DNA from: Candidatus Eiseniibacteriota bacterium
Lineage (GTDB): Bacteria > Eisenbacteria > RBG-16-71-46 > JABDJR01
DNA: 64,000 nucleotides
Direction of reading: 5' to 3'
Assembly: GCA_963783375.1 (NCBI GenBank)
Contig: CAWANH010000028.1
Location: 384,001-448,000 of the forward strand
How positions within the stretch are numbered: the first letter of the stretch is position 1; the number at the start of each line of letters is the position of its first letter. Both the position numbers and the translations under genes were made by a program. The notes under the pieces are model-generated. The model saw only the letters and a program-made list of their open reading frames with translations. It was not told the origin of the DNA and searched no databases. Of the stretch, positions 47,395 to 49,421 are shown in pieces.

Positions 47395-48825
47395 GTGAAA
47401 CCCAAAGTCAAATTCATCGTCGGACTGGTCATCGCCGCGGCAATCCTGGTCGCGACGATCCCGGCATTGGCCATGCGTTCCCTGGACCCATGGCAGATCG
47501 TGCTTTGGATGACGGTCTGCATGTTGAGCGAGCTCTTCTGGGTGAAGACTCCGAGCGGGGACTCCGTTCAGAGCCTCTCGCCGACCGCCCAGCTCGCGGC
47601 GGTGATCATCCTCGACCCGCGACTTGCCCTGATCGTCATCCTTGCCAGCACGACGCTCGGGAATCTCCTGTTCAGACGCCCCAAGTGGTATCGCGCCCTC
47701 TACAACGGGTCCCAGTTGATGCTCGCCAGCGCGGGGGCGGCCCTCGTCTACCACTTGATCAGCGGCACCCACGCGCTCGATGCATTCCAACTCTCGGGTC
47801 AGGCACGGGCGTTGGCCGTGGCCGATACGCTGGCGGATCGGCGGTTCGTGCTCGGCTTTCTCGCGGGAGGCATCGCCTACACCGTCGTCAACAGCACGCT
47901 CATGGCCTGGCTCATGAACGCGATGACCGGCCGGAAGATGCTCGTCCTGTGGAAAGAGAACTGTCTCTACCCCGAGGAAATCCAGAGCACCCTGGCCCTC
48001 ATTCTCCTGACCCCGCTCCTGGTGCTTCTCTACGGCACCCTGGGGATCTCGGGTCTTGTGGTTCTCTTCGCCTGTCTGGCCCTGGTGCACCAGGCCAATC
48101 GGCGCTACCGCGCGGTGGTCCGGGCCCAGGACAATCTCATTCGCTCCGAACGGATGGCGGCCATGGGCGAGATGGCCGAGGAGATCGGGCGGAGCCTGGG
48201 CAACTATCTGAACGAGCTCAAGGTGAGCGCCCATCGCCTGTTCCAGAAGGCCCGTCATGCCGAGACCGAGCGCATACTCAAGAGCGCGGAGATCATCCAC
48301 GTCAACGTGGACAACATGTCGGCGCTGGTGGACGGCCTCGCCGCGTTCTCTCACCGGGAGACCAACCGGGTTCCCACCGACCTCAACGAGCTGATGCGCC
48401 GGACCATCGACTTCGTTCGCCCCCAGAACCGGTTCGATGCCATCCGGTTCAAGTTCACCCCGGATCCGATCCTTCCCACCGTGAACGTCGACCCCGCACA
48501 GCTGCAACAGGTGTTCATCAATCTCCTCAGCAACGCGGCCGATGCCCTGGCCGAAGTGGACCGGCGGGTCAAGAAGATCTTCGTGGAGACGATCTACGAT
48601 CCCAACTCCCAGCGGATCCTGATCACCCTGTGCGACAACGGGCCGGGGATCCCCGACGCCAATCTCGAGCGCATCTTCGAGCCGCACTTCACCACCAAGG
48701 TGACCGGCCACGGGTTCGGTCTTTCCACCGTCTTCCGTATCACCGCCAATCACAAGGGGCGCATCCAGGCCGAGAACGTCCCGGGAGGCGGCGCGCGCTT
48801 CGTCCTCGATCTTCCGAACGCCTGA
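47395..48825 (+). CDS. Multi-TM sensor histidine-kinase-like protein lacking the H-box histidine
   Basis: About 7-8 TM segments; H-box reads MGEMAEEIGRSLGNYL; N (INLLSNA), G1 (DNGPGI), F (FEPHFTTK) and G2 (GHGFGL) boxes are intact. Confidence 0.85.
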   Translation: MKPKVKFIVGLVIAAAILVATIPALAMRSLDPWQIVLWMTVCMLSELFWVKTPSGDSVQSLSPTAQLAAVIILDPRLALIVILASTTLGNLLFRRPKWYRALYNGSQLMLASAGAALVYHLISGTHALDAFQLSGQARALAVADTLADRRFVLGFLAGGIAYTVVNSTLMAWLMNAMTGRKMLVLWKENCLYPEEIQSTLALILLTPLLVLLYGTLGISGLVVLFACLALVHQANRRYRAVVRAQDNLIRSERMAAMGEMAEEIGRSLGNYLNELKVSAHRLFQKARHAETERILKSAEIIHVNVDNMSALVDGLAAFSHRETNRVPTDLNELMRRTIDFVRPQNRFDAIRFKFTPDPILPTVNVDPAQLQQVFINLLSNAADALAEVDRRVKKIFVETIYDPNSQRILITLCDNGPGIPDANLERIFEPHFTTKVTGHGFGLSTVFRITANHKGRIQAENVPGGGARFVLDLPNA

Positions 48826-48854
48826 TCCCTCCACCGGTCCAGCTGTCGCCATTC

Positions 48855-48896
48855 ATTGACTGGTATCGTCGTCAATAGATGACATAGAGCTATCTA
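48855..48896. promoter_or_regulatory. Candidate upstream activator (enhancer) sites
   Basis: ATTGAC-N10-GTCAAT (48855-48876) and TAGAT-N11-ATCTA (48876-48896) in an AT-rich patch about 200 bp before the sigma54 promoter start site. Confidence 0.5.
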
Positions 48897-49050
48897 CTTG
48901 TTTCCCAGTTAATTAGGTCGGATCATCCAGGTCTGGTCAAAGATCGTTTACGCCTCGAGGCCTGAGCCCCCCTTCCCCCCAGCCCCGTAGCCAATCTGTA
49001 ACTTGTTGCGGATTCAAGCGTTGAGTCAATTCCCCCGGCCCCATTGCATT

Positions 49051-49066
49051 CGGCACGATGGTTGCG
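49051..49066 (+). promoter_or_regulatory. Sigma54 (-24/-12) promoter
   Basis: CGGCACGATGGTTGCG matches YGGCACG-N4-TTGC with exact GG-N10-GC spacing. Confidence 0.75.
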
Positions 49067-49133
49067 TATTAGGTGGGCGTGGTTGGCGCGAGTCTCTGAA
49101 AACCAACGAAGAACAAGGAAGGGGGAACGCAAC

Positions 49134-49226
49134 ATGTTCAGCATCATCAATCACGCCATGTCGCTCACCGGTGCGTGGGAGTGGCTCGGTGCCTGGGAAT
49201 GGCTTGGCGCCTGGGAGTGGATCTAG
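49134..49226 (+). CDS. 30-aa Trp-rich peptide MFSIINHAMSLT-(GAWEWL)(GAWEWL)(GAWEWI)
   Basis: [14 protein letters not shown]; three 18-nt repeats differing mainly at synonymous sites; stem-loop directly after TAG. Confidence 0.8.
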   Translation: MFSIINHAMSLTGAWEWLGAWEWLGAWEWI

Positions 49227-49233
49227 CCAAGCG

Positions 49234-49256
49234 GGCGGGGGCTCCTAGCCCCCGCC
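49234..49256 (+). terminator. 10-bp stem-loop right after the peptide stop (no U-tract; stabiliser or weak terminator)
   Basis: GGCGGGGGCT-CCT-AGCCCCCGCC. Confidence 0.55.
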
Positions 49257-49383
49257 AGGTTATCTGATCGCTTCGGCCGCTGGAGGGGGAGCTTCCGAGC
49301 CCAACGGAAGCATTGACCGGCGACCGGACCAGTTTGGAGCCTGGGTGGTGCAAGCTTCCGGGAACGCACTGCCCGCGGCTCGT

Positions 49384-49421
49384 CTACGGGGCCAATCCCC
49401 TGTGGCCCCGTAGTTTTTTTT
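49384..49421 (+). terminator. Strong intrinsic terminator
   Basis: CTACGGGGCCA-8 nt-TGGCCCCGTAG followed by T8. Confidence 0.85.

Follow-up and report, generated by a model that had tools for sequence, protein, structure and literature searches.

The locus described here lies on the forward strand of a 64,000-nucleotide stretch of a Candidatus Eiseniibacteriota genome (contig CAWANH010000028.1, positions 384,001 to 448,000), which we call the window and from whose first letter unprefixed coordinates are counted. It comprises a gene for a membrane-bound sensor kinase (the receptor, copy A), an AT-rich spacer with palindromes, a sigma54-type promoter, a gene for a 30-residue peptide with tryptophan-containing repeats, and a structured RNA element. 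A preliminary description had proposed these elements, in this order on this strand, as a peptide-signalling module, and all of them are present. A paralog of the receptor gene, copy B, lies on another contig (C29) of the same genome. The features are as follows (positions, strand).

47326–47352, +: sigma28 (FliA/WhiG)-like promoter of the receptor gene, TCAAG-N16-CCGATA
47395–48825, +: receptor copy A, 476 residues: MASE9, a dimerization and histidine phosphotransfer (DHp) domain without its histidine, and a catalytic and ATP-binding (CA) domain with intact ATP boxes
47395–48129, +: MASE9 membrane sensor, residues 1–245 (Pfam and structure model), with the predicted fold of the S-components of energy-coupling factor (ECF) transporters
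48190–48192, +: codon at the position of the H-box histidine, CGG (Arg266)
48490–48819, +: catalytic HATPase_c domain with intact N, G1, F and G2 boxes
48844–48951, +: enhancer-like region, with two palindromic sites (48844–48884), an AT-rich block and a third GTC..GAC site (48935–48951)
48999–49008, +: IHF-like site, a weak match in a conserved block
49051–49066, +: sigma54 −24/−12 promoter
49115–49125, +: ribosome binding site
49134–49226, +: 30-residue peptide gene, with a 12-residue amphipathic leader and three G-A-W-E-W-L/I cores (49170–49223)
49231–49255, +: hairpin 1, directly after the peptide stop codon, terminator-like in relatives
49344–49373, +: hairpin 2 of the conserved RNA element, with GCUUCCGGGA in its loop
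49384–49421, +: hairpin 3, with a C-rich loop and a T8 tail (terminator of the RNA element)
49527–49552, +: sigma28-like box of the downstream gene for a 537-residue protein

The spacer is AT-rich, with 41% GC at 48850–48950 against 69% in the window. Its palindrome, TGTCGTCAA-N3-TTGACGACA, is the top-scoring site 178–196 nucleotides before the promoter GG in nine of 11 loci and the second best in the other two, and its position relative to the promoter is constant over the 11 loci. The sigma54, IHF and sigma28 sites were matched to what we take to be the consensus motifs of these factors. A consensus sigma54 box such as that at 49051–49066 would be expected 0.0005 times in the spacer by chance and arises in 6 of 20,000 shuffles; the 4.7-Mb genome holds 14 strict sites, and GGCACG..TG of the box is invariant over the 11 aligned loci. 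With a GG-N10-GC box, an upstream palindromic enhancer, and both rpoN and about 25 enhancer-binding proteins encoded in the genome, the region has the sequence hallmarks of a sigma54-dependent promoter. The weakest element is the IHF-like site, which has two mismatches at best to the presumed consensus, while a TAACTnnTTG block is conserved. The second-best genomic match to a matrix of the enhancer, at C29:714972, lies between two enhancer-binding-protein genes and has no sigma54 box nearby.

The peptide had been described as carrying GAWEWL three times, which is accurate for the first two repeats, the third reading GAWEWI. Repeats 1 and 2 (18 nucleotides each) differ at three positions, all synonymous third positions, and repeat 3 adds only the change of L to I. 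In each of the eight family genomes, the receptor gene is followed after 290–340 nucleotides by the gene for a peptide of 24–31 residues, which consists of a leader and two or three W-x-W cores. Receptor homologs occur in 51 of the 61 relatives searched, the close relatives being titled Ca. Eisenbacteria, and a conserved unit of receptor, enhancer, sigma54 box and peptide is present in 8 of 8 genomes of this one Ca. Eisenbacteria family. The peptide follows copy A in 8 of 8 cases and copy B in none of 7. A codon pattern of the peptide, which misses divergent cores such as that of genome G005, matches in 7 of 201 genomes of the class, all from the window's family. The same pattern picks out 72 metagenome loci, five of which encode true leader-plus-core peptides, all downstream of a close receptor homolog (one at a distance of 2.5 kb); the other 67 are repeats or lie inside unrelated frames and were set aside. 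Neither search, in metagenomes or class genomes, found the peptide in an unrelated context, and no peptide paralog was found in the window's own genome. One RNA run held 7% of the sequence words, with a 231-nucleotide contig over 49097–49327 and a 229-nucleotide contig inside the receptor gene; these contigs show neither strand nor start and may stem from DNA carry-over, and are therefore not counted as evidence. The peptide is almost certainly real and translated.

Complementary losses in two kinase copies

A Pfam scan of the receptor finds MASE9 and HATPase_c and gives no match to HisKA. The H-box reads EEIGRSLGNYL in copy A, as against AEIAHELNNYL in homologs; all 31 intact homologs and all seven copies B have its histidine, and none of the eight copies A does. 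Copy B (C29, about 664.4–665.8 kb) retains the histidine and has no N, G1, F or G2 box. This division extends to individual residues. His266, Glu267, Ser276 and Gln280 are kept in every copy B (7/7) and in no copy A (0/8), while Asn376, Asn380, Asp414, Gly416, Gly418, Gly440 and Gly442 are kept in every copy A and in no copy B. In MASE9, Asn104, Gln107 and Pro207 follow the second pattern (8/8 and 0/7), as does Asn166 with one exception (8/8 and 1/7). Counting the positions conserved in the 31 intact homologs, copy A retains 53% of those in the His helix and 90% of those in the catalytic domain, and copy B 95% and 38%, respectively; the His helix of copy B is 92% identical across genomes. Among 120 database hits, all 23 close ones lack the histidine and keep the ATP boxes, whereas all 97 distant ones have both. 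Copy A thus has the CA domain of a canonical homodimeric kinase, with its N, G1, F and G2 boxes, and lacks the H-box histidine.

Every genome of the window's family (8/8) has both copies (the copy of G005 being cut by a contig end), and outside this family the kinase gene is nearly always single. Copy B is flanked by an oligopeptide ABC operon on one side and by CCA enzyme and polyprenyl synthase genes on the other, and the sister family has a single intact kinase gene at the equivalent locus; as far as gene order indicates, copy B occupies the ancestral locus. No response regulator gene was found adjoining A or B at either locus. In a tree of 28 of the 46 rows, over residues 191–373, copies A, copies B and the intact genes of the sister family form one group (support 84, not starred). 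In a full-length tree, for which the careful search was unfinished and from which L104 and five duplicate loci were left out, A and B each form one clade, and the order among A, B and the sister family is not resolved.

The two copies also share a type of promoter. A sigma28-like box, a label that presumes the FliA/WhiG consensus, stands 50–75 nucleotides ahead of every His-less copy (12/12), of six of the seven copies B and of two of the 31 intact genes, both of the latter in the sister family; chance would give 0.002 boxes per 220 nucleotides. It was first noticed on copy A and on the downstream gene, before copy B was tested. The genome has two FliA/WhiG genes.

Without its histidine, copy A is incapable of standard autophosphorylation, and so needs a partner. 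The pattern of losses suggests that duplication and complementary decay gave rise to a two-subunit, heterodimeric kinase, and A and B probably act together. The closest tested case is that of group A Streptococcus, in which the kinase FasB is described as phosphorylating the histidine of FasC in a heterodimer (PMC12675982), and which thus offers a precedent for the split pair. The same division, one paralog with catalysis and the other with the histidine, is seen here at the sequence level in 8 of 8 genomes; the single operon that includes a response regulator is not. As portrayed in that report, FasBCA(X) also consists of membrane kinase paralogs proposed to heterodimerise, with one CA domain phosphorylating the histidine of the other, and further resembles the present locus in its proteinaceous signal and in an RNA transcribed downstream as output. 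FasB and FasC, however, share an operon with a ComE-like regulator, and their His subunit is the sensor, whereas A and B are unlinked and the sensor residues lie on the ATP-binding subunit. In addition, the losses here can be read off decayed motifs, MASE9 is the sensor, and a sigma54 promoter for a peptide gene is adjacent.

We note that copy B and many intact kinases often end in Ala-Ala, as copy A does not; such C-termini recall the tags that mark proteins for degradation by ClpXP. In genome G008 (L043:7018-8529), another degenerate protein resembling the MASE9 kinases has no Pfam match and stands divergent from a lipoprotein and an intact copy.

The MASE9 sensor and Trp-ending peptides

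The MASE9 match in the receptor (PF20972) is above its cut-off (27.9 bits against 24.3, E 2.7e-6), and the structure model contains no periplasmic domain, in line with the polytopic sensor envisaged in the preliminary description. The domain is modelled with a mean predicted local distance difference test score (pLDDT) of 91, and it has the conserved Asn and aromatic residues of MASE9 sensors, its conserved polar residues being Asn104, Gln107 and Asn166. All of the top 15 rows of structural matches are ECF S-components (Z 14.6 to 8.5), the first unrelated match having a Z of 7.7. The best is NikM (Z 14.6, root-mean-square deviation 3.4, 191 of 245 residues aligned), and CbiM is also among them; Foldseek returns S-components again, weakly (best E 0.01). 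MASE9 is thus predicted to have the S-component fold, which by itself shows no function. Compared with NikM/CbiM, FolT and RibU, which share the predicted fold, MASE9 is only 10–16% identical and is fused to signalling domains, and no ECF T or A genes adjoin it in the window. In NikM, an N-terminal loop of nine residues is reported to fill the pocket (PMC4245157), a precedent for a peptide segment inside an S-component fold. For MASE9 itself the ligand is described as not known, binding within the membrane having been proposed (10.1101/2021.11.05.467447). The MASE9-HD-GYP and MASE9-GGDEF-EAL proteins of that report (TM1467, HdgA) have the same sensor with conserved Asn/Ser and aromatic residues, and its text, Figure S5 aside, names no kinase fusion, adjacent peptide or S-component fold. 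A complex prediction for residues 1–250 with the 30-residue peptide scored 0.01 against a mark of 0.32, and as its controls did not fold, it weighs in neither direction.

The kinase core is closest to the AtoS and ZraS types (both are the best NCBIfam matches and both lie below cut-off), and no Agr or Com kinase family is among the best 25 of its 74 NCBIfam matches. AtoS- and ZraS-type kinases phosphorylate sigma54 activators, and the core therefore fits an output through such an activator.

Throughout the phylum, MASE9 genes have neighbouring open reading frames (ORFs) with a tail of the G-K/R-A-G-W type, carried by short peptides before MASE9-HD-GYP genes and by lipoproteins before stand-alone MASE9 genes and some kinases. 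An adjacent Trp-ending ORF is found at 21 of 28 MASE9-HD-GYP genes (two of the misses being loci cut by contig ends) and at 8 of 9 stand-alone MASE9 genes, compared with 83 of 2393 controls (3.5%), counts that were corrected by hand in that L143, L161, L220 and L223 were dropped as non-coding and L201 and L217 were moved out of the stand-alone class. The window's own genome holds a second such pair, an unannotated 20-residue peptide of the Trp-tail kind beside a MASE9-HD-GYP gene. In genome G019 (L209 / L150), a leader and three tandem G-G-H-A-W-W cores precede MASE9-HD-GYP, and repeated cores thus arose at least twice. A short hydrophobic peptide also precedes MASE9-HD-GYP in Natranaerobius, Nonomuraea and Subdoligranulum (3/3, with a near-terminal Trp in two), so that similar peptides are seen in Bacillota and Actinomycetota; these cases rest on three records of a plasmid collection, a scan of a genome collection having returned only six close relatives. 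Because the Trp tail also ends lipoproteins, it points to an extracytoplasmic site.

The 20-residue peptide gene (C29 near 615.8 kb; L002 about 7750-7830, minus strand) has a ribosome binding site, lies between a conserved gene of no known function and the MASE9-HD-GYP gene, and is preceded by short AAGCGAA-type repeats; related loci are L199–L204. Most of the lipoproteins beside MASE9 genes have the order H-F-S, 8–20 residues, and a G-K/R-A-G-W-type tail (L045:5574-6209(-), L040:5518-6219 and L043:5893-6573(-); further loci L051, L144, L147, L157, L158, L160, L163, L164 and L167). ZU5 domains are cleaved at HF|S, and two of six scanned lipoproteins give weak Pfam matches to ZU5, below cut-off. 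It is possible that the tail is released as a tethered agonist; ZU5 is described as autoproteolytic and as a relative of the GPS domain (PMC3482391). In families f10 and f17, several intact MASE9 kinases (L017, L025, L028, L031, L216) have a cytoplasmic Trp-containing tail of their own, such as G-Q-A-G-W. A second sigma54-linked arrangement is found at L049 (genome G028), where a sigma54 box 827 nucleotides upstream of the receptor would drive a lipoprotein that ends in G-T-G-D-W and comes immediately before an intact MASE9 kinase.

The 3′ RNA element and neighbouring genes

Hairpins and a T8 terminator had been noted after the peptide gene. They are present; the T8 terminator (49384–49421), however, closes a separate structured RNA element and not the peptide gene, whose own stop codon is followed by hairpin 1, with U-runs after it in relatives. 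Two-sided changes occur at 5 of 8 pairs of hairpin 2 and, for hairpins 2 and 3 together, at 9 of 20 pairs, more than in all 500 shuffles; G-U pairs favour the plus strand. The structure was derived from the same sequences and is thereby favoured over the slid controls. The GCUUCCGGGA loop is conserved. No Rfam family matches the element at gathering score (best E 2), and an assignment as signal recognition particle RNA was rejected, that RNA of the genome lying elsewhere. The strong hits of an RNA model search are the training loci, hence strong at this locus only, and outside the family E is 0.003 or worse; the element was not found in G005. The whole 350-nucleotide transcript folds little better than its shuffles (z −1.8). 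C-rich loops in RNAIII and RsaE are reported to pair with ribosome binding sites (PMC4152353), and by this likeness a role as a small RNA (sRNA) is possible.

The downstream gene (49599–51212) encodes a 537-residue protein with no Pfam, NCBIfam or Atlas match and is present in 12 of 61 genomes (families f1, f2 and f13). It was considered as a part of the unit and rejected. It has its own sigma28-like box, and its homologs elsewhere come without the module: in other families, none of four is preceded by a peptide, a sigma54 box or the RNA.

Among the neighbours, an M15 peptidase with a dockerin-like motif (46208–47212) lies upstream of copy A in most loci checked, G005 excepted. At 57781–58808 (minus strand), a kinase-like gene upstream of a REC-PP2C gene is split over three frames, possibly by an assembly frameshift.

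A candidate peptide-sensing circuit and its alternatives

We propose that the Trp-core peptide is sensed by the split MASE9 kinase, a reading of the whole locus to which we give an even chance. The peptide gene would be transcribed by sigma54 with an enhancer-binding activator; the amphipathic leader would carry its product as far as the inner membrane or through it, and the G-x-W-x-W cores, three per precursor, would be exposed or excised there; a core would enter the S-component-like pocket in MASE9 of copy A; the catalytic domain of A would phosphorylate the histidine of B in trans; and from B the phosphate would go to a response regulator. This regulator would probably be an activator of the NtrC type and might act back on the promoter of the peptide gene, closing a loop. 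The Trp-ending ORFs beside MASE9 genes, together with the S-component fold, make the peptide a likely ligand, and binding to copy A is somewhat favoured. Export and autoinduction are conceivable, with the balance tilting against them. Positive feedback would be conjecture, a brake being also possible.

A number of observations weigh against this proposal. For the kinase pair, A (contig C28) and B (contig C29) are encoded apart, unlike fasBC, and their sister relation has no support in the tree (support 3). On the regulatory side, a scan for further genomic copies of the palindrome with a sigma54 box had been suggested, and none of the 15 hits of the enhancer matrix in the genome is a second sigma54 promoter with the same enhancer. 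No activator of the peptide promoter could be assigned among the about 25 enhancer-binding proteins. An orphan activator (C28:1518517) was rejected because its phylogenetic profile mismatches that of the kinase: it turned up in families that lack the kinase, yet not in G006, nor in 7 of 10 f10 genomes. Another activator, encoded three genes away from an intact copy in G006, has an ortholog in the window's genome, with a receiver that apparently lacks its Asp. For the link between receptor and peptide, which holds for copy A in 8 of 8 cases, 36 or 37 of 43 intact kinase homologs have no adjacent peptide (a Trp-ending ORF adjoins 6 of 31 intact kinases, or 7 with one just outside the interval, and none of 12 further kinases). 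The Trp-tail motif was set after the loci had been seen, the counts are inflated by kinship (7 of the 21 HD-GYP cases are the window's family), the G-x-W-[EQ]-W core of the window is unlike the common G-K-A-G-W tail, and one of the three peptides from other phyla has no Trp. As to export, the 97% complete genome has no AgrB over cut-off, no detected DUF5317 and, of the C39-ABC exporter (PCAT), only a C39 domain in a frame of 281 residues, too short for a transporter fusion.

Two alternatives keep the peptide or the two kinase copies in a regulatory role. MgrB and SafA are small membrane-associated peptides that regulate kinases, and the peptide could likewise remain in the producing cell and bind the receptor in the membrane or close to it, as a feedback brake or activator, with no cell-to-cell signal. 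We regard this as unlikely: lipoproteins end in the same tail, and two or three tandem cores, arisen independently in G019, suit a multi-copy precursor that is cut. It would account for the lack of a dedicated exporter or maturase among the genes found, for leaders that are short, amphipathic and, in several cases in the phylum, acidic, unlike Sec signals, and for the Trp tail that some intact kinases bear at their cytoplasmic C-terminus. The proposed binding of MASE9 ligands within the membrane (10.1101/2021.11.05.467447) also fits it, while the outer loop reported to cap S-component pockets (PMC4245157) does not. The kinase copies, in turn, might form no catalytic pair, A being an allosteric pseudokinase and B a phosphotransferase loaded from a receiver domain. 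DivL, which like copy A has no histidine, is described as such a regulator of another kinase (PMC12189002), and the unlinked genes agree with the idea. This is nevertheless improbable, since the losses are exactly complementary within one ancestral gene family, with co-occurrence in 8 of 8 genomes and a common promoter, and the 90% of conserved CA positions that A keeps are not obviously needed for pure allostery. ChpT and Spo0B are His carriers without ATP binding, and ChpT, like copy B, keeps its histidine on a dead catalytic fold; in contrast to DivL and ChpT/Spo0B, both proteins here come from one gene family, have the same membrane domain and co-occur.

The remaining two alternatives give the transcript or the peptide another function altogether. 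Six Trp codons followed by hairpins and a T8 tail could form an attenuation leader, and two covarying plus-strand hairpins with a C-rich loop like those of RNAIII and RsaE (PMC4152353) could belong to a dual-function transcript with an sRNA; one contig from the RNA library extends beyond hairpin 1, as far as 49327, a weak point as it is strandless and DNA carry-over is possible. That the RNA is the working product is nonetheless very unlikely: the amino-acid pattern is conserved beyond the Trp codons, with synonymous changes, and the element was not found in G005. The downstream gene's own sigma28-like box and its four module-less homologs argue against attenuation in particular. An sRNA role can coexist with the circuit proposed here. 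Darobactin-type peptides have W-x-W motifs cross-linked by a radical-SAM or P450 enzyme, and a leader with repeated W-x-W cores, or a hydrophobic peptide of 30 residues with a structured 3′ region, might accordingly be the precursor of a ribosomally synthesized and post-translationally modified peptide or a type I toxin, the receptor being a mere neighbour. The peptide gene, however, exists in a single copy, in every case behind copy A, other MASE9 genes have related peptides beside them that lack W-x-W, and the adjoining genes, for the M15 peptidase and the family-less protein, include no recognisable maturase (remote maturases were not searched for), the latter protein occurring elsewhere without the peptide; we consider this explanation highly improbable.

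The preliminary description had likened the receptor to AgrC, ComD and ComP. In its kinase this comparison fails, the sensor being MASE9 with the S-component fold and the core of AtoS/ZraS type, and neither an AgrC/ComD-type kinase nor a dedicated processing exporter (AgrB or C39-ABC) is found. In layout it holds: like AgrC/AgrD, ComD/ComC and ComP/ComX as described in PMC8895600, a polytopic membrane kinase stands beside a leader-plus-core peptide gene, in all eight genomes of the family and at five metagenome loci. Output through sigma54 instead of LytTR or NarL regulators, repeated cores, a diderm host and a split kinase further set the locus apart. In agr, too, the regulated transcript contains an RNA with C-rich loops, RNAIII. 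In sum, the locus likely works like peptide quorum sensing but belongs to none of the agr, com and fas systems; we found no description of this module in the literature, searched mostly among openly accessible papers.

A broader proposal, which is speculative and on present evidence rather doubtful, is that MASE9, with the substrate-binding fold of a transporter, has been co-opted in several phyla to receive Trp-ending peptides. Its ligands would come from micro-peptides, from multi-core precursors, or from tails cut off ZU5-like self-cleaving lipoproteins, the last resembling, in bacteria, the tethered agonist of adhesion G-protein-coupled receptors. In the window's family, the system would be an exported, autoinducing loop in a diderm host: a sigma54-driven three-core precursor would activate an obligate heterodimeric kinase that arose through duplication and complementary losses, and a C-rich sRNA from the same transcript would be a second output.

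If the proposed circuit is correct, the peptide would provide a short, synthesizable candidate ligand for MASE9, a domain that controls cyclic di-GMP enzymes in Thermotoga, Streptomyces and Bacillota. The kinase copies would offer a naturally occurring and dated example in which a histidine kinase has split into a sensor/catalytic and a phospho-acceptor subunit, and, as the intact ancestor persists in the sister family, the mechanism is testable with three soluble proteins. Receptor-kinase peptide signalling, so far mainly Gram-positive, would then extend to a diderm candidate phylum with a sigma54 output.

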